NCBI GenBank assembly: GCA_017453245.1
Contig: JAFTKM010000008.1
Location: forward strand, 19,017-83,016
Direction of reading: 5' to 3'
From: Clostridia bacterium
Lineage (GTDB): Bacteria; Bacillota; Clostridia; Oscillospirales; CAG-272
Length of the DNA: 64,000 bases
Positions 52,637 through 63,067 of the stretch are shown here, in pieces (position 1 is the first letter of the stretch; the number at the start of each line of letters is the position of its first letter). Below the pieces are notes generated by a model. That model did not search any database. It saw nothing but the letters and a program-made list of their open reading frames with translations, and was not told the DNA's origin. A program made the translations under genes and the position numbers.

Positions 52637-52776
52637 TGGGTTTATGTATACTTTGATTAGCATTATGCTAAATTAAGATGATTTTGCGGCACGTGATAAC
52701 AACCGCGTTATGAGATTCATCAAAAGGAAATCTTATATTTGCTCCTCTCTGAAATCAAAACTTGTTTGTTAATTGT

Positions 52777-53124
52777 TCTATAGCACACCGGGGCGAAAAA
52801 GTAAAGGACGGTTTGATTACTCGGGGCCGCCCTGCTTTTAACCTTCCCCAGCGAAGCGAGTTGGGGAAGGGGGACCACCTTTGGTGGTGGATGAGGTTGA
52901 ATTGATGCTCACGCATCATAAATTGCACGTTGTGCATGAATTGGCTACACCATGAATTGACGGCAAAGTCGTCACTATGGTGAAGTTTTTGCCTACGGCA
53001 AAAGTGAAGTTGTGCGAAGCACAGTGAAGTTTGAGGCGTTGCCTCAAGTGAAGTTGATTTTGCTCGGTGCAAAATCAGTTATTCGGTAAGAGACCTCATG
53101 GCTTTGGCAATACAGTCGGGGTAA
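52777..53124 (-). repeat. Cassette junction repeat copy 5 (cotJC-tail mimic 53079-53117, word-hairpin array 52842-53075, promoter block 52777-52835); followed by no ORF
   Basis: The mimic encodes DCIAKAMRSLTE-stop on the minus strand. The array is parsed in the findings. TTTACT, 17 nt, TATAGA. Confidence 0.8.
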
Positions 53125-53571
53125 CTAATTATTCAATAGATGATTTATCAACTCTTCGAGTCCGTCGGAATCAACGTTATAACCCCTCTTGCCGGTTTCG
53201 CTTTCTTCTGTTGCTTTATCCACCCACCCCGAATATGAAAATTGTAGCTCATACGTGGGGTAATAAAAAACAAGAACATTCTCTCTAGGCCAGTTTGGCT
53301 CCATAACTATCAGTTTTTCAAATTTCATATTAGCTATTTCTGATATTGCATAATCACATTCTTCGGCACTTAATGTTTTGACAATTTCGGTATTGAATTG
53401 ATATTCCGGTTCATAAATAGTAGAATAAGTGACAATCTCCGCCTTTACTAAATCGGCGCTTAATTCATCGTAAGTATAAGTTACGTAAGAGCCTGTACAT
53501 GATGCTGTGTTGAATAAAACGCAAAATACAATAAGCAAAACTAGTACGCACTTCACATTGTTATTATTCAT
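53125..53571 (-). CDS. Cassette D cargo: small lipoprotein (148 aa), hypothetical
   Basis: MNNNNVKCVLVLLIVFCVLFNTASCTGS (signal plus Cys). GGAGG lies 8 nt upstream of the ATG at 53571. AT-rich. Confidence 0.7.
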   Translation of the reverse strand: MNNNNVKCVLVLLIVFCVLFNTASCTGSYVTYTYDELSADLVKAEIVTYSTIYEPEYQFNTEIVKTLSAEECDYAISEIANMKFEKLIVMEPNWPRENVLVFYYPTYELQFSYSGWVDKATEESETGKRGYNVDSDGLEELINHLLNN

Positions 53572-53915
53572 AGTTGTTCCCTCCATAAAAAACTTATAGA
53601 ATGATGCCACATTTATTATACCACACTCACACGAAAAAGTAAAGGACGATTTGATTTCTCAAACCGCCCTATATGATGAATTGATGCTCACGCATCATGA
53701 ATTGCACGATGCGCATGAATTGGCTACGCCATGAATTGACGGCAGAGCCGTCACTATGGTGAAGTTTTTGCCTATGGCAAAAGTGAAGTTGTGCGAAGCA
53801 CAGTGAAGTTTGAGGCGTTGCCTCAAGTGAAGTTGCTTTTGCTTCTTGCAAAATCAGTTATTCGGTAAGAGACCTCGTAGCTTCGGTAATACAGTCAACA
53901 TAAAGCATTATTCAA
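53572..53915 (-). repeat. Cassette junction repeat copy 4 (mimic 53858-53896, array 53676-53855, promoter 53615-53643)
   Basis: The mimic encodes DCITEATRSLTE-stop. Promoter is TTTACT, 17 nt, TGgTATAAT. Confidence 0.85.
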
Positions 53916-54773
53916 TCACTTTAATTTTTCTTTACAATAACGCAAAAGCTCTTTGGTTAAGCAACAGAACGATTCACCTTTCACCTGTACCTTTCCATTG
54001 GAATCTATGAACTCACAACAAAATTCAATATAGTAGCACAACTTTATACTATTATCCAACAGGACTCTAATTGGTGAGCCAATTTGGACAAGTTCTTTTT
54101 TTCTCCAAAGATTTCGGTCAATGAAAATGCCTTTATCATCATAGTCAGAATTACTCGCAATTTGCTCTAATGGCTCAAATGAGAAGTATATTCCAAGATA
54201 TGTTGAATTTTCATTAGATAAAAACATTGTGAGTTCTACAAAATCAACTTGCTTAAAGCATCTTTTCCCAAATTCATTCCAATACCAAAGATATATTAAC
54301 AGTTGCTTTTGGGAAAGAAATTCAGTCAATCCAGATAAATCTTCTTTTTCCCAAAATCCACCGATCGTATATGTTTTGTATTTTATTTTTGGTTGTTCGC
54401 AATAAGTAATTGCCTGTTCAAACAACTGTGACGAGGGCGAATAATCAATATCAATTCTGCCAAATGTTTTGGTCTTGCCACATTCCGTGCATTGTGAGAC
54501 AAGCTCAACGGAAATAAAATCATCTGTTTCTTTTCTTCGCAGGTAATCAAAACGAACCTTAAAGAAATCATTTTTACAGGAACACTTTTGCTTGCTTGGA
54601 TGCTTTTCTTGAATTAAATCATACCAATATTCTTTACTATCAAGAATAAAATAGGATTTATCAGAACGAGATATAAGAATACCTGCATTTTCATCACGAA
54701 TATATCTGATTTGAAACTCATCTTCTCCTATAGATGACACAATTTCTTTTTGTATTTTTCTTTCGTCAAGCAT
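53916..54773 (-). CDS. Cassette C cargo: hypothetical protein (285 aa) with a CxC...CxxC putative zinc-ribbon
   Basis: KQKCSCKNDFF...SQCTECGKTK. AAAGGAA RBS. A hand count of one 60-nt line (54001-54060) gives 17 G+C. Confidence 0.7.
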   Translation of the reverse strand: MLDERKIQKEIVSSIGEDEFQIRYIRDENAGILISRSDKSYFILDSKEYWYDLIQEKHPSKQKCSCKNDFFKVRFDYLRRKETDDFISVELVSQCTECGKTKTFGRIDIDYSPSSQLFEQAITYCEQPKIKYKTYTIGGFWEKEDLSGLTEFLSQKQLLIYLWYWNEFGKRCFKQVDFVELTMFLSNENSTYLGIYFSFEPLEQIASNSDYDDKGIFIDRNLWRKKELVQIGSPIRVLLDNSIKLCYYIEFCCEFIDSNGKVQVKGESFCCLTKELLRYCKEKLK

Positions 54774-55018
54774 ATGGCAATTCCTTTCTTTTGTTATACA
54801 ATGTCAAACGATGAATTGAGCCGTTGGCTCATGAATTGCACAAAGTGCATGAATTGGCTACGCCATGAATTGACGGCTATGCCGTCGTTGTGGACACCTC
54901 ATCCACCACTTCGCGGTCGACCCCCTTCTCCCACTGGAGAAGGCTGAGGTTATTCGGTCAAAGACCTCATAGCTTCGGCAATACAGTCAGAGTGAAGTAT
55001 TCTTTTTAAATACGGTTC
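54774..55018 (-). repeat. Cassette junction repeat copy 3 (mimic 54950-54988, short array 54808-54949); lacks the conserved promoter block
   Basis: The mimic encodes DCIAEAMRSLTE-stop. About 55 nt (CCTTCTCCCACTGGAGAAGG hairpin through CATAGCTTCG) is near-identical to the true cotJC end at 57021-57075. Confidence 0.85.
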
Positions 55019-55522
55019 TCATTTGCCACAACAGCTATTACAAGCACTATCGGGTTCTTTACAATGATACCAACAATAATCCTGGCTAATTCGAGACGCA
55101 TATTTTGAAGCCTGAATTTCAAGAGAACGATTGTTTTTTTCCTTATCATCATAAAAATACCATTGAAAATAATGTGTCAGTTCATGACTTAGCGAATCGT
55201 ATATTTGGCATAAGCTTTGTTGCGTAGGAATGTATATCTGCGGATATGCTCGTTCGCCACTTTCATGATTTGAGAAAAACATCCCATAGCTATATCCCCC
55301 TTTGTGCTTACGAAATTTTTCTTGATTGCAAAAATAAACATTACATCTTATCGGGAAGTAAAATTCTTTTCTTAAATAGCGTACAAAATTACATATACAT
55401 TTCTTGGTTTTAGGGTCAATGTCTGATGCAAAATGAAGAGAAAGATTTGATTTAGGTGCTGAATCTGCATAAAATGCCAAGTTTTCCTCTGTTTTTGTTA
55501 CCCACAAAAAGTTATTTGCCAT
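55019..55522 (-). CDS. Cassette B cargo: hypothetical HExxH protein (167 aa), possible small zinc metallopeptidase, Cys-rich C-terminus
   Basis: LSHELTHYFQW and C-terminal CWYHCKEPDSACNSCCGK. ATG at 55522 has GGAGGT 8 nt upstream. Confidence 0.7.
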   Translation of the reverse strand: MANNFLWVTKTEENLAFYADSAPKSNLSLHFASDIDPKTKKCICNFVRYLRKEFYFPIRCNVYFCNQEKFRKHKGGYSYGMFFSNHESGERAYPQIYIPTQQSLCQIYDSLSHELTHYFQWYFYDDKEKNNRSLEIQASKYASRISQDYCWYHCKEPDSACNSCCGK

Positions 55523-55895
55523 TTTTAAGCACCTCCATTTCAAATCGACTCTATGATAATTATACCACACACCTACCAAAAAGTAAAGGACGATTTGATC
55601 TCTAAACCGCCCTATTGAATGAATTGAGCCGTTGGCTCATGAATTGCACGTTGTGCATGAATTGGCTACGCCATGAATTGACGGCTATGCCGGCGTTGTG
55701 GACACCTCACCCACCGTCTGCGACGTCCCCCCTCCCCAAAGGGGAGTGTAAATGCCACCTTCGCAAAGCGAAGATTTCATCGCTTTAGCGATTTCATCCG
55801 ACCTCGTCGGATTTATTTCGTCTTGGACGGATTTAATTGCGAAGCCTACTCCGTAAGGCTTCGCATGGCTTCGCCAATGCAGTCGACATGAAGTA
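55523..55895 (-). repeat. Cassette junction repeat copy 2 (recoded mimic 55846-55884, array 55616-55845 with ATTTCAT-type words, promoter 55559-55587)
   Basis: The mimic encodes VDCIGEAMRSLTE-stop with different codons for RSLTE-stop. Promoter is TTTACT, 17 nt, TGgTATAAT. Confidence 0.85.
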
Positions 55896-56669
55896 CTATT
55901 TATTGTTTTCCACCAACTTTTTTATGTAATCGCTTCTGCTTCCGTCCCAATGACACAATTCGCATTTGCCGTCCTTAAATTGATGCTTACACTTTTCATA
56001 ACCATAAAGAATATGTGCACACTCGGGACAAAGCGACATCATTTGCGATTTAGTTTTAATAAACTTGCTTCCGCATTCATCACATTCGTGACAGATTGAG
56101 CCAAGAGTTTCTTTCATTTTTTCTCTATCATAATCTAAAAAATAACCTTCAAGTTTTGGATAAAACTCAATATATTTATTCTCAGAAAAGAAAACAATAT
56201 CACAACCCCTATCGTCATAGACTGAAAATATAAATTGATCATCAAATGAAACAAAACTGACCAAAGGTGAATATTGATTATCTATTTGTTTTTTTATTAT
56301 TCTTTCAAAAACTGCGAAATCAACATCAAATGAAATATATCTTTTTACTGTTTCAACATCTTCGTCTATTAGATCTATACTATGTAGCACATCCATATCA
56401 AGATTAATTACTTCGTCAATGGTTATTCCAAAATTGCCAACTTCGCATGCTTTGCCGTCAATAAAATACTCTAAATAAAATGCCGCATCTATTTTTTTGT
56501 TTTCAAATAAAATGTTAGCAATTTTCATTGCTCTCTCTAAAGCGTTATCAAAATATTCTTTGCCTTGACCAATTCCCAACTCGCATCTTAAAGCTAATTT
56601 ATTACTGTAAAACCAGGGCTGCGAGTAATCGAAAGTGGGGTCAAGTATTTTTTCACGCATATTGTTCAT
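55896..56669 (-). CDS. Cassette A cargo: hypothetical protein (257 aa), DUF3885-like N-terminal region (tentative) plus C-terminal double zinc-ribbon
   Basis: SVYDDRGCDIVFF, and CHECDECGSKF...CPECAHILYGYEKCKHQFKDGKCELCHW. AT-rich. Confidence 0.7.
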   Translation of the reverse strand: MNNMREKILDPTFDYSQPWFYSNKLALRCELGIGQGKEYFDNALERAMKIANILFENKKIDAAFYLEYFIDGKACEVGNFGITIDEVINLDMDVLHSIDLIDEDVETVKRYISFDVDFAVFERIIKKQIDNQYSPLVSFVSFDDQFIFSVYDDRGCDIVFFSENKYIEFYPKLEGYFLDYDREKMKETLGSICHECDECGSKFIKTKSQMMSLCPECAHILYGYEKCKHQFKDGKCELCHWDGSRSDYIKKLVENNK

Positions 56670-57045
56670 GTTACTTGCTCTCTTTTAGAATATAATATTG
56701 TTTTTTACATTATACCACAACCCACATGAAAAAACAAGGACGATTTGACTAATCAAACCGCTAATCAAACCGCCCTTGTGGATGAATTGAGCCGTTGGCT
56801 CATGAATTGCACAGAGTGCATGAATTGGCTACGCCATGAATTGACGGCTGTGCCGTCGTTGTGGTGAAGTTTGCGTTTCACGCAAGTGAAGTTGTGCGAA
56901 GCACAGTGAAGTTGATTGTAGCCTTCTCCTGAGGGAGAAGGGGGACCACTTGTGGTGGATGAGGAGTTGGCTATAATTACAACAAAAGTGACACCTCATC
57001 CGCCTCACTTCGTTCAGCACCTTCTCCCACTGGAGAAGGCTTAGG
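56670..57045 (-). repeat. Cassette junction repeat copy 1 (abuts the true cotJC stop; array 56781-57045, promoter 56709-56737)
   Basis: Same ATGAATT and GTGAAGTT word-hairpin grammar. Promoter is TTGTTT, 17 nt, TGgTATAAT. Carries a duplicated GGTTTGATTAG unit. Confidence 0.8.
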
Positions 57046-57594
57046 CTATTCGGTCAAAGACCTCATAGCTTCGCCAAAGCGCTGGTAGTGGACAATCTCG
57101 CGCTGGCGGAGGAATTTGATAGCGTCGTTTACGTCGGGGTCGTCGCTAAGGCGGAGGATATTATCGTAGGTGACTCTCGCCTTCTGCTCTGCCGCGAGGT
57201 CCTCGTTGAGGTCGGAGAGCGCGTCTCCCTTTGAGGATATTGCAAACGCGTTGAAGGGCTCGCCCGATGCCGCCGAGGGGAAGACACCGTTGCCGTGGCC
57301 GATGTAATACTTATCAAGGCCGCCGGCAGTTATCTGCTCGGGGGTGAGGTTGCGTGTGAGCTGATAGATGATACTGCCCACCATCTCGGCATGCCCGAGC
57401 TCCTCATTGCCGATGTCCGTTAAGGTAGCGATAATCTTGCCCTTAGGCATAGTGAATCTCTGATTCAGGTATCTTGTCGCGGCGCCGAGCTCACCGTCGG
57501 GACCTCCGAGGGCGTCTATAATAAGACTTGCTAAGCGCGCGTTGGGGTTCTTAATCTTTACGGGGTACTGAAGCTTTTTCTCATATATCCACAT
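57046..57594 (-). CDS. cotJC: Spore coat protein CotJC (manganese-catalase-family)
   Basis: MWIYEKKLQYPVKIKNPNARLA...GELGAATRYLNQRF...EELGHAEM...REIVHYQRFGEAMRSLTE. Close to my recollection of B. subtilis CotJC. Confidence 0.9.
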   Translation of the reverse strand: MWIYEKKLQYPVKIKNPNARLASLIIDALGGPDGELGAATRYLNQRFTMPKGKIIATLTDIGNEELGHAEMVGSIIYQLTRNLTPEQITAGGLDKYYIGHGNGVFPSAASGEPFNAFAISSKGDALSDLNEDLAAEQKARVTYDNILRLSDDPDVNDAIKFLRQREIVHYQRFGEAMRSLTE

Positions 57595-59517: not shown

Positions 59518-59725
59518 GTGTTCTCCGTCAAGAAGAACACACTATAACTAAGTTTGCCCTTTCGGGCAAGTGCAGTTGTCTTCGACAGTGAAGTTCACTT
59601 CGTGAGTGAAGTTTTGCCTGTCGGCGAAGTGATGGGCAAACTTAACTACACTGCGAGCATTTGCGAGCAACTTCACTGTGCTTAGCACAACTTCACTTTC
59701 GCTTTTGCGAAAACTTCACCAGCAG
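59518..59725. repeat. Word-hairpin array with AGTGAAGTT (x2) followed by its reverse complement AACTTCACT/C (x3)
   Basis: AGTGAAGTT at 59587-59595 and 59605-59613. AACTTCACT at 59669-59677 and 59689-59697, and AACTTCACC at 59712-59720. Each pair is separated by a 9-15-nt mini-hairpin. Confidence 0.8.
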
Positions 59726-59798: not shown

Positions 59799-61793
59799 CT
59801 AAATATTAAATTTTAGTTCCCTAATTTTACCCGATTTTTCCGTGACGGTGACCTCTACATTGCCGTCTGTATTTTTCATTTCAACCGACGTAATTACCGA
59901 GTCGGACTTATACGCCTCGATGACGTTTATGAATATCGGGCATTTCTCGGTTGTGCGCTCAAGAAGATATGACACGCTCGAGGTTGCGGGATTGTTAGGT
60001 CCCTTAGCTAGTATCAGCTCCTTGCCTTCTGCCAAGGTGTGGACGTCCATACACCAACCGTCAGCGCGGTATGTGAGCTTGGTCGGGCGGTCGCATCGGT
60101 AGGAATAAGCTTCGCCAAGGTAGACTCCTGCGCCCTTGTCAGAGACCTTGCCGATATACTCAGCCTCCTTCGGTAGCTCTGCCTCCGCATTGATATGCCA
60201 GATCCATTCCTTCTTTAAGTCGTTATCCGATCTTACAGAGAAAACGTCGATGAAATACTTATCGTGCCACGAGATGATGCGGCGCATTGTGACACCCCTG
60301 TATGACTCGTCCGACCACTGCTTGATGGTGAAGGAGTCGAGCATCTCATACTCCTCGGGCGGCAGAGTCTCGGCATCAAGGTAGATATCGTCGGGAGCAC
60401 TCATACGATATTCTCTGATACGGGTATCACAGGGCGCCATATTCTCACCGTCGATAACAACGGTATTATGCGCCAGAGTATTCTTAAAATAACCGTAATG
60501 AAGAGGCGAACCGTAGCCCGAAGCGGTGCCAAAATCCATACACGCCCCCGCGCCAAAGGCGTCAAAGGAGAGAGCCAAGCGGTCATAGTGATCGTGCTCA
60601 CCGCCATAGGGTGTCGCCTTAAATAAGAGGGTTCTGCCCTCGGTTCCGTGAAGGATAGCGAGACCTGATCCACGCTCGGAAAGATAGTTTTCAAGCGGTA
60701 TTTCGTGACGCGCGGGAAGGTTATCTACGCCATAGATCAGCGCGTCAAGATGTCCCCTCTTACCTTCTCTGTCACTTAAGTAAAGCAGAGCAAGTATTTC
60801 GTCCGTGCCAAATACCGAGTAGGCAAATTCGTATATGTCCGAATAGCCCGAGAGTGAGCCGTGACCGTCGTTTAGCCTTGCGGTATTCGAGTCGTTCACA
60901 CGGAGCTTGAGAGGCAGGATCAAGGCCTTATAGAGCTTGTCGCGGTAGTGCGGATCTCCGAAAAGGCTATGCTCTGTGTTCTTCGCCATCTTCTCAAAGG
61001 TCATAAACCACCTGAGAGCATAGAGATGGTAGGATACCGAGCACTCAAACCACAAATTATCCTCGAGGTAGGCGTGGTCTATCTGGTATTTGAGACCGTA
61101 CTTGGTATCGGTGGCAAAGCGCACAAGCTCCCCATCTTCGATGGCAAGACCTATCGCGGCGATCGACGTGCAGATAGCGACCTCGTGGTTGTGTAGCTGA
61201 GGGGTAAGATACTTCCTCTGATGCTCTGCCGCGGGGCGGAACAGCTCGTTCTCGATAATGGTACGTTCCTCGTCTGTGAAGCTGAATTTGATAAGCGAAT
61301 ATGCGGGAGCGAGATTGCAGATTGGCTCGCAATCGGTAAGCACCTGAGCGGCAAATCTGCCCGGGTGATTATACGGAATGCCTCCGTTAACCTCATAGTT
61401 TTTGTAGTTTTCGGCGTAGCCGAGTATTATTGTCTTTGCGACAGATAAGAAGTCCTCCCTGCCCGTCGCAACATAGCCTATGGCAAGCTTATATGCGGCA
61501 GAGGTTGTCATAGTGAGGACCGTCTCCCACCACGCGCCAAGGTATGGCTCGCCCGTCTGCACACCTCCGCACTCGGGGCAGACAAAGCGCTCGTTGTCAT
61601 TATAGTTGAAGCTAAGGCGCGTGCCGCACTCGGGACAGGTGAAATAGTGATACCACGTGGCAAGACCTGTCTTTTGTATATAGAGCTTTCGGCGGACGTT
61701 GCTTGTGCTATTCTCGATCTTTGTTATATATTCGGGGTGATTTTCCACCCTTTTTCTTATTATTTCGATGTCTCTTTCGGAAAATATCATCAT
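59799..61793 (-). CDS. Heparinase II/III-like (alginate-lyase-superfamily) protein with an N-terminal zinc-ribbon
   Basis: 664 aa. CPECGTRLSF...CPECGG, SVSYHLYALRWF, GGEHDHYDRLALSF, KNTLAHNTVVIDGENM. No signal peptide. Confidence 0.7.
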   Translation of the reverse strand: MMIFSERDIEIIRKRVENHPEYITKIENSTSNVRRKLYIQKTGLATWYHYFTCPECGTRLSFNYNDNERFVCPECGGVQTGEPYLGAWWETVLTMTTSAAYKLAIGYVATGREDFLSVAKTIILGYAENYKNYEVNGGIPYNHPGRFAAQVLTDCEPICNLAPAYSLIKFSFTDEERTIIENELFRPAAEHQRKYLTPQLHNHEVAICTSIAAIGLAIEDGELVRFATDTKYGLKYQIDHAYLEDNLWFECSVSYHLYALRWFMTFEKMAKNTEHSLFGDPHYRDKLYKALILPLKLRVNDSNTARLNDGHGSLSGYSDIYEFAYSVFGTDEILALLYLSDREGKRGHLDALIYGVDNLPARHEIPLENYLSERGSGLAILHGTEGRTLLFKATPYGGEHDHYDRLALSFDAFGAGACMDFGTASGYGSPLHYGYFKNTLAHNTVVIDGENMAPCDTRIREYRMSAPDDIYLDAETLPPEEYEMLDSFTIKQWSDESYRGVTMRRIISWHDKYFIDVFSVRSDNDLKKEWIWHINAEAELPKEAEYIGKVSDKGAGVYLGEAYSYRCDRPTKLTYRADGWCMDVHTLAEGKELILAKGPNNPATSSVSYLLERTTEKCPIFINVIEAYKSDSVITSVEMKNTDGNVEVTVTEKSGKIRELKFNI

Positions 61794-61824
61794 ATTTACC
61801 TCGCGGCTGGTTGATTTCGTCTCT

Positions 61825-61853
61825 ATTTTAGCATATTAAAGCGAAGTTGTAAA
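61825..61853 (-). promoter_or_regulatory. Candidate promoter of the heparinase-like gene
   Basis: On the minus strand: TTTACA (61848-61853), 17-nt spacer, TGcTAAAAT (-10 at 61825-61830). Confidence 0.45.
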
Positions 61854-61858
61854 GTAGA

Positions 61859-62154
61859 GTGACGATGATTCTTTACTCCGTAAAGAGATATATTCGCCCT
61901 GAGGCGAGTGATATGTTGCTTTTCGCAACGTGATATTATTTCGCCGTGCGAAATAGTGATATGCTCGCTACAAGCGAGCGTTAAAAGAAAAAGCAACCAG
62001 CAGGTGACGATGATTCTTTACTCCGTAAAGATCGATATTCGCCTTACGGCGATCGATATGCGCTTCGCGCTCGATATATTGGCTTCGCCAATTCTATATG
62101 TGCTCTCACGAGCACGATAAAAGAAGAAAGCAACCATCTACCGGTTGCTTTTCT
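61859..62154. repeat. Two tandem word-hairpin arrays, each opened by GTGACGATGATT-CTTTACtccGTAAAG; words GTGATAT (array 1) and TCGATAT (array 2)
   Basis: Array 1 spans 61859-61979 and array 2 spans 62004-62116. Each is followed by an AAAAGAAnAAAGCAACC... terminator-like motif. Full parse in the findings. Confidence 0.8.
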
Positions 62155-62160
62155 AATATA

Positions 62161-62197
62161 AAAAAGAACGGTCAGCAGGTGACCGTTCTTAATTTTT
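62161..62197 (-). terminator. Terminator T2 of the rplL pseudo-copy
   Basis: AAGAACGGTCA gcagg TGACCGTTCTT. Same loop and flanks as the true rplL terminator, but a completely different stem. Confidence 0.65.
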
Positions 62198-62208
62198 ACA
62201 GAGTGTGA

Positions 62209-62257
62209 ATTACTTAACTTCAACTTCTGCGCCTGCAGCCCCCGAGTCTGCTGCAGA
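62209..62257 (-). pseudogene. rplL 3'-end fragment F2 (last ~10 codons plus stop plus 3' UTR)
   Basis: 62209-62240 is identical over 32 nt to 62695-62726. It then diverges in a 5-nt patch (CCCGA instead of TTGAG). Confidence 0.85.
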
Positions 62258-62390
62258 TAATCAAGCGAAGCGTATCGGGGAGCTCGCTCACCAGTACGCG
62301 AGCGCAGATTGCTCCGTGGCGGCTCGTCACAGACGAGCATAGGCGCGTAGCGCCAAGGACACGAAGTGGACTTACGCCACATAGGAGTAT
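62256..62390. repeat. Structured ~135-nt element, copy B
   Basis: About 93% identical to 62498-62631 (about 9 differences by eye). Contains perfect triloop hairpins GCTCGTC-aca-GACGAGC and GGCGC-gta-GCGCC, enclosed by GTGGCG/CGCCAC. Confidence 0.85.
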
Positions 62391-62502
62391 CTTCTCAGCC
62401 TCTTCCTTAGAGATGCCTTCCTTGATGGTCTTGGGAGCAGTCGGGCAAGATCCTTAGCATCCTTAAGACCAAGACCGCAAACGTCCTTAACAAGCTTGAT
62501 AA
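62387..62502 (-). pseudogene. rplL internal fragment F1 (codons for IKLVKDV...EAEK), frameshifted
   Basis: 50 nt and then 54 nt are identical to 62744-62793 and 62801-62854. They flank a patch where real ACTCAAC (7 nt) is replaced by TCGGGC (6 nt), shifting the frame by one. Confidence 0.85.
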
Positions 62503-62631
62503 TCAAGCGAAGCGTATCGGGGAACTCGTTCACCAGTACGCGAGCGCAGATTGCTCCGTGGCGGCTCGTCGCAGACGAGCATAGGTGCGTAGCGCCAAGG
62601 ACACAAAGTGGACTTACGCCGCAGGGAGCAT
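62498..62631. repeat. Structured ~135-nt element, copy A
   Basis: See copy B. Lies between the true rplL terminator and fragment F1. Confidence 0.85.
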
Positions 62632-62650
62632 AACGGGGATTTTAAAAGAA

Positions 62651-62690
62651 AAAAGCAACCAGCAGGTGGTTGCTTTCTTCTTTATAGAGA
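62651..62690 (-). terminator. rplL intrinsic terminator T1
   Basis: On the minus strand: AAAGCAACCA cctgc TGGTTGCTTTTTTCTTTT. Confidence 0.75.
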
Positions 62691-62695
62691 TGAAA

Positions 62696-63067
62696 TTACT
62701 TAACTTCAACTTCTGCGCCTGCAGCCTTGAGGTCTGCAGCGAGCTTCTCAGCCTCTTCCTTAGAGATGCCTTCCTTGATGGTCTTGGGAGCAGACTCAAC
62801 AAGATCCTTAGCATCCTTAAGACCAAGACCGCAAACGTCCTTAACAAGCTTGATAACGTTAAGCTTGGATGCGCCTGCGCTGGTAAGAACAACGTCAAAC
62901 TCGGTCTTCTCCTCAACAACGGGAGCTGCTGCTGCAACTGCGCCAACTGCTGCTACGGGAGCTGCGGATACACCGAACTCCTCCTCAAGAGCCTTAACGA
63001 GATCAGCAAGTTCAAGAATAGTAAGACCCTTTACAAGGTCAAGAATCTGGGTAGACTTTTCGTTCAT
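62696..63067 (-). CDS. rplL: 50S ribosomal protein L7/L12
   Basis: [36 protein letters not shown]...[56 protein letters not shown]. Confidence 0.95.

Follow-up and report, generated by a model that had tools for sequence, protein, structure and literature searches.

Word-hairpin arrays beside rplL in a Clostridia bacterium: probable local members of the Gut-1 family with features of an extragenic repeat

A 64,000-nucleotide stretch of Clostridia bacterium DNA (the window) carries, between rplL and a heparinase II/III-like gene, two adjoining arrays in which a constant heptamer alternates with variable hairpins. Judged from their sequence, both arrays are genuine non-random structure and local members of the Gut-1 family described in 2010. 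We tentatively favor the reading that the window arrays are promoter-less, one-sided Gut-1 copies and that the family is an extragenic repeat of the REP/BIME kind, not a dedicated sRNA gene. New here are the bipartite form of complete elements, covarying stems that are poor in wobble pairs, a loop polarity that flips and an orientation that is not fixed, together with an rplL site that is both empty and filled in a sister species and window copies that lack a promoter.

Layout of the rplL site

The arrays form two adjoining units of about 140 nt (unit 1, 61859-62003; unit 2, 62004-62154), each with an opener, GTGACGATGATT, five perfect stem-loops, one heptamer as separator and a piece of terminator. 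The elements that the earlier note listed for both arrays are all present and correct to the base. Together with their surroundings and the other arrays of the window, they are as follows:

52987, 53766, about 56860 and 59554: other arrays, with the word GTGAAGT
54817, 55625, 56788, plus weaker copies: other arrays, with the word TGAAT
55769-55839, minus strand: array with the word ATGAAAT, from the Rfam scan
59799-61793, minus strand: heparinase II/III-like gene, 664 aa
61825-61853, minus strand: promoter-like site of the heparinase gene, TTTACA-17-TAAAAT with TG, directly after array 1 in the minus-strand reading
61859-61870, plus strand: unit 1 opener GTGACGATGATT
61871-61885, strandless: unit 1 hairpin 1, CTTTAC tcc GTAAAG, common to unit 2
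61886-61893: unit 1 word variant AGATATAT, before hairpin 2
61894-61907, strandless: unit 1 hairpin 2, TCGCC ctga GGCGA, conserved in the family
61908-61979, plus strand: array 1 core, three GTGATAT words (61908, 61930, 61956), each followed by a hairpin
61915-61929, 61937-61955 and 61963-61979: unit 1 hairpins 3-5, GTTGC/GCAAC, TATTTCGC/GCGAAATA and GCTCGC/GCGAGC
61980-62003, plus strand: GTT end of array 1, then a left-half copy of the rplL terminator, AAAAGAAAAAGCAACCAGCAG (61983-62003)
62004-62030, plus strand: unit 2 opener (62004-62015) and first hairpin (62016-62030)
62031-62115, plus strand: array 2, with TCGATAT at 62032, 62053 and 62071 and TCTATAT at 62093
62039-62052, 62060-62070, 62078-62092 and 62100-62115: array 2 hairpins TCGCC/GGCGA, GCGC/GCGC, ATTGGC/GCCAAT and GTGCTC/GAGCAC
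62116-62154, strandless: T2, terminator-like hairpin AAAGCAACC atctacc GGTTGCTTT, copied from the rplL terminator, loop changed
62164-62190, strandless: T0, bidirectional terminator AAGAACGGTC agcaggtg ACCGTTCTT, the sole element here in empty-site strains
62644-62683, minus strand: T1, terminator of the intact rplL and source of the half-terminator copies by the arrays
62696-63067, minus strand: rplL

The unit 1 opener, which reads AATCATCGTCAC on the minus strand, ends 5 nt short of the -35 of the heparinase promoter, and the end of array 1 reads GCGAGC GTTAAAAG. The AAAAGAA..AAAGCAACC motifs that had been noticed at the unit ends are real. Compared with 62644-62683, they are copies of the rplL terminator, one a complete hairpin (62116-62154) and the other a half (61983-62003), which in the minus-strand reading is the terminator's 3' half placed between the two arrays.

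Several measures set the arrays apart from chance. Three equal heptamers at hairpin spacing occur once per word in the window and in 0 of 100 dinucleotide-preserving shuffles, and the opener 12-mer has just these two sites in the window. A scan for runs of perfect hairpins returned each array as a run of five; mononucleotide shuffles gave runs of three to five hairpins, none with a common word. Folded as single-stranded DNA, the region scores z = -5.25 against shuffles. The hairpin-run scan placed word-hairpin arrays only within 52.9-62.2 kb of the window. Coding potential was considered and set aside, as a 70-aa ORF at 61908-62120 is made of words and hairpins and is probably spurious; a resemblance of the opener to a C/D box or k-turn was likewise rejected, the snoRNA matches being weak (E > 2).

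Both arrays lie antisense to both neighbors. We found no promoter of their own: the promoter-like sites of the region are that of the heparinase gene and a weak, word-made match inside array 2. A terminator scan called T0, T1 and T2, and no array hairpin passed on a T run. The one call inside an array (61912-61932) is a word-hairpin-word stretch followed by ATATTATTTC, in which the T count is reached without a T run. We therefore rejected the array hairpins as intrinsic terminators, since the heptamer follows each directly and there is no U tract.

On the minus strand, the rplL side reads rplL, T1, a 135-nt element, a partial rplL copy split by a second 135-nt element, and T0. The heparinase side continues with T0, T2, array 2, half of T1, array 1 and the heparinase promoter. 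For comparison we used contigs with an exact match to the RplL protein, from the same strain and from a sister species, B. The same-strain contigs (L242, L252, L001) have identical arrays. In species B, whose heparinase gene is 81% identical in DNA to that of the window and 98.7-100% identical within the species, the site has three alleles: (i) T0 only (L243, L246, L247, L248); (ii) T0, an element of about 135 nt, a partial rplL copy and T1, with no array (L245); and (iii) T1, a five-hairpin ATATCAC array and a 25-nt repeat, CCACCTGCTGGTTGCTTTTTTCTTT (L244, L249, L251). The 25-nt sequence repeats the 3' half of the terminator and so flanks the allele (iii) array. Species B has the rplL site in both an empty and a filled state. 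Since the heparinase genes of alleles (ii) and (iii) are 99.2% identical, gain or loss of the array was a recent event.

Window array 1 has its orthologue in the allele (iii) array. The stems GCTCGC and TATTTCGC are identical between the two, all five loops differ, and three stems have changed with compensation from array 1 to species B: TCTTTAC/GTAAAGA to TCTTTG/CAAAGA, TCGCC/GGCGA to TCACC/GGTGA, and GTTGC/GCAAC to GTCGC/GCGAT, where the terminal pair is now G.T. A redoxin gene of species B is absent from the window site and occurs within species B as two alleles that are just 74% identical. The variety of alleles and the rearranged order argue that the locus downstream of rplL is a recombination hot spot, and what accumulates there is an array plus a terminator fragment. 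A metagenome scan with the rplL 3' end, aimed at further alleles, returned 33 loci, with arrays in none, and exact look-ups of the heparinase and CotJC proteins returned the same strain only. Just one contig matches the heparinase protein exactly; it has a length of 2.5 kb and breaks off at the rplL repeat.

Gut-1 identity and the architecture of complete elements

Array 1 (61885-61966, plus strand) matches the Rfam model of Gut-1 (RF01706) at 41.6 bits (E = 1.6e-6) under a relaxed threshold, below the curated gathering score of 50 bits. It has the Gut-1 layout, with at least three hairpins separated by a heptamer, a first hairpin UUCGCC..GGCGA and a GUU end. Array 2 keeps this layout with UCGAUAU as its word and has no match to the Gut-1 model even at the relaxed threshold. 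Elsewhere in the window the array at 59545-59617 scores 46.2 bits, and at the gathering threshold the sole Rfam match in the whole window is the L10 leader. GTGATAT arrays in 20 fetched loci score 51-63 bits (for example 59.7 for L167), at or above the gathering score, and in L181 the two halves of the element match Gut-1 on opposite strands.

Gut-1 was described from human gut sequence as hairpins with GUGAAAU between them and, rated on its covariation, as probably a non-coding RNA (Weinberg et al. 2010, PMC2864571). The seed alignment published with it (PMC2864571, supplementary file 95) includes GUGAUAU members, which share the first hairpin UAUAUUCGCC..GGCGA and the GUU end and stand between a terminator, directly upstream, and an inverted AUAUCAC array. 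Rfam files Gut-1 as an sRNA. In our literature search on Gut-1 and tandem-hairpin repeats, nothing was found after the 2010 paper. The grammar of constant word and variable perfect hairpin that the earlier note proposed is therefore real and conserved across species, but it is not new, being that of Rfam Gut-1 with GUGAUAU already in the 2010 seed.

How widespread is the family? A scan of one genome per species, anchored on the conserved TCGCC/GGCGA hairpin (pattern ATATTCGCC-N3-6-GRCGANYGATAT), returned at least 120 loci, and the family has several copies per genome in more than 100 species-level gut Clostridia genomes. Nearly all the matches listed are in MAGs, from Oscillospiraceae, Acutalibacteraceae, Ruminococcaceae, Faecousia, Christensenellaceae and unclassified Clostridia; one locus among them lies outside Clostridia (L122, labelled Terriglobales). 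Their hosts are the guts of humans, ruminants and other animals. The earlier note had considered that only a few loci might exist, explained by one known family. Many loci exist, but all belong to one described family. An origin in phages or plasmids was rejected: BLAST of a canonical element found one unannotated gut phage record and no plasmid match, and the same pattern occurs at 4 loci in 2.9 million viral contigs. A separate scan of viral contigs for three GTGATAT words returned mostly unrelated tandem repeats, with true arrays only in L016 and L052 among the 120 listed.

Complete elements are bipartite, with a left array, a right array in inverted orientation and, between them, a center that complements the left end. 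After a tRNA or protein gene and a terminator-type hairpin, such an element reads (T)CA GTTATAT, [TCGCC..GGCGA] and three GTGATAT-hairpin units; then GTT, 3-6 nt and GGCGAATATA; then ATATCAC-hairpin three times and a closing ATATCAC. The dialects come in matched pairs, GTGATAT/ATATCAC, TCGATAT/ATATCGA, ATGATAT/ATATCAT, GTTATAT/ATATAAC and GCGATAT/ATATCGC. Among the matches listed, 50 of the 126 anchored sites are bipartite, 66 one-sided and 10 ambiguous. One-sided arrays, window array 1 included, end in GTTAA-like sequence. A terminal inverted match of 11 nt, TTATATTCGCC...GGCGAATATAA, surrounds the left array and covaries in variants (AAATCC/GGATTT, TTTGCC/GGCAAA, TTCGTCC/GGACGAA). Pairing of left with right words as a four-way-junction ladder was also considered, the counts often being 4 + 4 and MFE folds using some such pairs; it is not supported by word variants in L124, L126 and L127, which show no nested-order covariation.

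These relatives bear on how the two window arrays arose. The units share 57 nt at one end, with 86% identity, and have terminator-derived sequence at the other. The last hairpin of L167 is nearly that of window array 1. TCGATAT arrays from other species can be aligned with the interior of array 2 (L128, 93.6% over 47 nt; L186, L136, L193 and L241 too), which makes array 2 part of an older TCGATAT lineage and not array 1 diverged on the spot. The tandem duplication proposed earlier thus holds for the unit ends and fails for the TCGATAT interior, which is homologous to the L128, L186 and L136 arrays.

Stem pairing, loop polarity and dispersal

Watson-Crick pairs account for 461 of the 480 stem pairs in 99 distinct hairpins; one pair is G.T and five are A.C. 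RNAalifold on 35 aligned canonical left arrays found eight pairs with compensated changes, the pairs showing up to 15 double changes against 0-1 one-sided ones; single stem positions vary as CG:16/AU:9/UA:6, GC:24/UA:8, CG:11/UA:9/GC:6 and CG:22/GC:11. In alignment A2, stems h3 and h4 have 62 compensated cells against 4 one-sided. These comparisons indicate that the stems are under selection for perfect pairing. Selection on structure, which the earlier note had offered as one option, is supported both by this alignment and by the three compensated stems that separate array 1 from its orthologue. The combination of strong covariation with near-zero wobble on either strand is unlike typical selected RNA helices. 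The near-absence of wobble is what would be expected if both strands, or either orientation, must fold.

The loops are polar. Of 112 loops read on the NNGATAT strand, 65 have the form T..C (TTC, TAC, TGC, TTGC, TTAC and others), and on the ATATCNN strand 40 of 77 are of the form G..A (GTA, GCA, GAA, GTAA, GCAA), so that polarity reverses with the orientation of the word. Such strand-asymmetric loops point to one functional strand per unit.

Among the matches listed, 45 of 126 anchored sites lie directly after a terminator-type hairpin, following ..TCAGTT or ..CTCAGTT, and about a quarter of 60 scanned loci have a tRNA or tmRNA gene upstream. The upstream gene is co-oriented in 69 cases versus 34 in which it is not. 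One-sided arrays have flanking genes in every arrangement (15 same/same, 7 opposite/opposite, 16 convergent, 7 divergent), and array orientation relative to flanking genes is not fixed. We therefore rejected the idea that the G..A-loop strand lies on the lagging-strand template, as one-sided arrays run both ways relative to neighboring genes.

Several MAGs have two to four fetched loci each, with common repeats of 150-360 nt at 68-98% identity. In MAG JAFXFC01 an element of about 330 nt occurs at separate loci, where L135 and L184 can be aligned over their full length and L125 is truncated. It begins with a terminal hairpin, ATCATAATTTGTC-gggg-GACAAATTATGAT, and a GCGATAT left array and continues with a 75-nt center, an ATATCGC right array and a related terminal hairpin; the left flanks all end in TAA, and the end hairpins of a fourth copy (L240) differ. 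Some single arrays (L148, L132, L052) contain repeated units that are identical or nearly so, and the same hairpins appear in different species in other combinations, as a mosaic. No recurrent transposase or recombinase was found in 210 proteins flanking 120 loci among the matches listed, and no transposase-like gene is bracketed by inverted arrays. No consistent target-site duplication was seen; the flanking repeat at rplL is 25 nt of terminator. For the active generative mechanism suggested earlier we find no evidence, as unit duplication and heptamer swapping suffice, given the repeats in L132, L148 and L052.

What kind of element are the arrays?

Arrays occupy the gap between a terminator and the next promoter. 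The repeat unit is a short, very stable stem-loop plus an A/T-rich heptamer. Under the extragenic-repeat reading that we tentatively favor, the heptamer would act as microhomology: slippage or recombination there would duplicate, delete and exchange units, and this would account for a single word throughout an array and different words in different arrays; the uniformity itself would come from slippage. Modules may land either way round and would then have to fold single-stranded from either strand, which would account for stems free of wobble. The window arrays would have arrived with terminator fragments in the hot spot downstream of rplL. Their role in the cell would most likely be structural and in cis: stacked stem-loops would insulate neighboring transcription units or shield RNA 3' ends; alternatively they may have none, as selfish DNA tolerated in safe intergenic space.

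Comparison with known systems frames this reading. Array 1 resembles Gut-1 in its hairpins split by GUGAUAU, its UUCGCC...GGCGA hairpin, its GUU end and its occurrence in gut Clostridia. Gut-1 is filed as a human gut metagenome sRNA, whereas here it is found also in MAGs from the rumen and other animal guts, and the bipartite inverted arrays, the wobble-free stems and the unfixed strand are unlike Gut-1 as filed. Like REP and BIME sequences, the arrays are extragenic multi-copy palindromes, clustered, in both orientations and often just 3' of genes. They also share with them a short single-stranded word by a hairpin, mosaic modules and presence or absence between strains. Many dispersed intergenic copies per genome, in either orientation and often after gene ends, were found here, as REP/BIME status requires. 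However, REP hairpins are about 35 nt long, imperfect, conserved in sequence within a genome and accompanied by the word GTAG, whereas the array stems have 4-8 bp, pair perfectly and vary greatly, with a heptamer as the word, and no RAYT is among the flanking proteins.

Among Firmicutes, BOX of Streptococcus pneumoniae and STAR of Staphylococcus aureus are modular intergenic repeats of debated function that contain a variable number of internal units and encode no enzyme. Both have longer units (about 45 nt for boxB; a 14-nt GC-rich motif with spacers of about 40 nt for STAR) and, by description, no alternation of word and perfect hairpin, unlike these arrays. CRISPR arrays are similar in alternating constant with variable parts and in an array-specific dialect. 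They differ in having repeats of about 24-48 nt, unique spacers, a leader and cas genes, whereas here the constant part is 7 nt, the variable part is palindromic and recurs across species, arrays have 3-6 units and the window has no cas. Integron attC sites, too, are read as folded structures beside gene cassettes, but the arrays lack the single long imperfect hairpin R''/L''-L'/R' and there is no IntI. The other dialects of the window sit between cassettes at 52.7-57 kb. These cassettes carry copies of the cotJC 3' end, and relatives have a large serine recombinase, which needs no such arrays.

Three observations sit badly with the extragenic-repeat reading. The strand asymmetry of the loops is unexplained by a purely double-stranded or purely selfish view. 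In many bipartite elements a promoter-like site (TTGAAA, 16-17 nt, TG-n-TATTAT) aims into the left array, which fits an RNA gene. Finally, the REP-defining word GTAG is absent, and no RAYT was found beside the arrays.

A second possibility, which overlaps in part with the first and has some chance of being right although we hold it unlikely, is a non-autonomous MITE- or PATE-like element mobilized in trans by an enzyme that works on single-stranded DNA, for instance an HUH/Y1 (RAYT-like) protein. The enzyme would read hairpin and heptamer, and the heptamers would be cleavage-joining sites at which units are added, lost and swapped. HUH enzymes (IS608, REP/RAYT) read a conserved single-stranded word beside a hairpin, and the word-beside-hairpin layout with its loop polarity is of this type; moreover, NNG/ATAT resembles what we take to be the nick site of the phiX174 and pC194 Rep proteins, CTTG/ATAT (slashes mark cuts). 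The dispersed copies in one MAG, with their defined ends, related terminal hairpins and TAA left flanks, the covarying terminal inverted match around the left array and the filled and empty alleles at rplL are all consistent with mobility. However, no transposase, RAYT or recombinase recurs by the arrays or occurs in the 64-kb window, and the sites seen have no consistent target-site duplication. The 25-nt repeat at rplL equally fits deletion or duplication between repeats. The hairpins are far more varied in sequence than those of REP families, and the arrays are seldom found in viral contigs (4 loci) and never in the plasmid collection.

A dedicated sRNA gene, the kind under which Rfam files the family, we also regard as unlikely. 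The bipartite element would then be a transcription unit whose central promoter, with its -35 in the first right-hand hairpin and an extended -10 in GTGATATTATAT, starts about 7 nt after TGATATTAT and produces the left array as an RNA of the AUAUCAC strand. This RNA, with GNA/GNRA loops, would end at the bidirectional terminator common with the upstream tRNA or protein gene and leave three or four heptamers single-stranded between the hairpins, which could make it a sponge for, say, an RNA-binding protein. On this view the window arrays would be fragments, either silent or reached by read-through. Besides the rating by covariation in 2010, the centers themselves speak for it: on the bottom strand, opposite to the upstream gene, 12 of 36 have a -35 matching at five of six positions 16-17 nt from TG-n-TATTAT (1.6% of random positions do; none on the top strand), and in L127 and L147 this is the sole promoter-like site by scan, with 10 of 12 matches and a TG. 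The match may be a by-product of the words, however. A top-strand promoter at the center's TATAAT was rejected, as it has no usable -35. The loops on the predicted strand are of the stable G..A type, but both strands have almost no wobble pairs, an unusual state for an RNA under selection, and the predicted RNA is antisense to the strand that Rfam models. The right-hand array, left untranscribed, goes unexplained. Moreover, 66 of the 126 sites, both window arrays included, are one-sided, with no center or promoter and in either orientation.

More speculatively, and with little weight in our view, the units may be cis sites of a system in Oscillospirales that acts on single-stranded DNA, with an HUH-type or other structure-reading enzyme encoded elsewhere that cuts at NNG/ATAT. 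Cutting and rejoining there would build, shuffle and spread arrays, as a Firmicute counterpart of REP/RAYT, and would explain the uniform word, the loop polarity, the wobble-free stems and the bipartite architecture.

Highly improbable, finally, are iteron-like double-stranded sites for a regulator or nucleoid protein upstream of promoters, with the palindromes as spacers: the heptamer is a typical half-site, and ATATCAC- or ATTCA-oriented arrays of three dialects do end 5-7 nt before a -35 (the heparinase promoter; cassette promoters at 53.6, 55.6 and 56.7 kb; L248; right arrays of L127, L130 and L161), but word-to-word spacing is 16-26 bp, so that there is no helical phase and phased bending and iterons are rejected, spacers would give no reason for selection on pairing, several dialects occur in one genome, even side by side, and arrays are also seen to precede promoters the other way round (L286) and to lie between convergent genes.

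What does this mean for Gut-1? An orphan sRNA of Rfam since 2010 gains a context: uncultured Clostridia of gut and rumen carry it widely, its inverted bipartite arrays lie by terminators and tRNA genes, its stems covary with little wobble and its presence varies at the level of strains. The arrays also break short-read assemblies, as in the 2.5-kb heparinase contig, and mark recombination hot spots. If the family is a repeat at the DNA level rather than an RNA gene, its Rfam type would be misleading, and it would constitute a REP-like system with no known mobilizing enzyme in these genomes, a concrete target for a search. The kind of family is known, and the context of the locus makes its RNA or DNA nature testable.

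The partial rplL duplicate and its surroundings

Downstream of the intact rplL, the window holds a truncated second copy of the gene together with two copies of a short, putatively structured element.

Features around rplL (L-numbers denote loci fetched from other genomes or contigs)
62164-62190 and 62644-62683 (the latter on the minus strand): rplL terminators with a common loop, shared with L253, L255, L258, L264, L270, L277 and L282
62205-62255 plus 62391-62502: partial rplL duplicate, final ~160 nt of the gene
62256-62392 and 62498-62635: ~135-nt element, two copies; a further copy lies at L245 5473-5604
63674-63846, minus strand: ribosomal protein L10 leader (RF00557, 45.7 bits)

The blocks of the duplicate are 100% identical to window 62744-62856, and T0, the bidirectional terminator at 62164-62190, is its own ancestral terminator. 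The duplicate looks like the scar of a homology-assisted gene transfer, through which the region downstream of rplL would have been replaced. A comparable RplL-fragment ORF of 94 aa is present in L245, a strain of the sister species B. In the sister species an AhpC/redoxin gene (477-511 aa) separates rplL from the heparinase gene and occurs as two alleles of only 74% identity; this gene is missing from the window (59799-62700 compared with L243-L249).

The loop ACCUGCU(G) is constant in the rplL terminators of this clade while the stems co-vary from species to species, and it is similar to the 16S anti-Shine-Dalgarno ACCUCCU.

The two window copies of the ~135-nt element are 95% identical, one lying at the edge of the partial rplL copy and the other within it. 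Folded as RNA, the + strand is predicted to form a multi-helix junction (-61.3 kcal/mol, z = -6.3); the minus strand gives z = -2.7. The element, a candidate for a small and mobile structured RNA or DNA, had zero Rfam matches at E <= 10. Across the 64-kb window, the L10 leader is the sole Rfam family reaching its gathering threshold, and no tRNA genes were found.

Other dialects and a second palindrome family

The grammar of the Gut-1-type arrays 1 and 2 (61859-62154), a constant word with a variable perfect hairpin, recurs in the window with other words, or dialects.

Other repeat arrays
52987-53077, 53766-53853, 56860-56915, 59545-59617: GTGAAGT dialect
52890-52965, 53675-53745, 54817-54886, 55625-55692, 56788-56857: TGAAT dialect
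55769-55839, minus strand: ATGAAAT dialect
52820-52895, 54885-54945, 55693-55760, 56920-57040: G+C-rich palindromes, a second repeat family

Two of the other-dialect arrays match Gut-1 in Rfam below threshold (46.2 and 30.7 bits). Examples from the G+C-rich family are CCTTCTCC-cactg-GGAGAAGG and GGGGACCACC..GGTGGTGG. In the cassette region its palindromes alternate with word-hairpin arrays, and modules like them occur in L137, L136 and L286.

The cotJC cassette region

52700-57050, minus strand: four small genes in tandem (161, 285, 186 and 257 aa, among them a DUF3885 gene)

This set is low in GC (37-45%). Each of the four genes has its own copied cotJC 3' end and a promoter, TTTACT-17-TGgTATAAT; palindromes accompany it as well, along with word-hairpin arrays and the hairpin GGGCGGTTTGA-gaaa-TCAAATCGTCC. 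At the related loci L286 and L287, a 519-aa large serine recombinase adjoins a 3' fragment of cotJC, with further cassettes after it. By analogy, the region resembles the product of SCC-like serial integration, which may have taken place at the cotJC 3' end.
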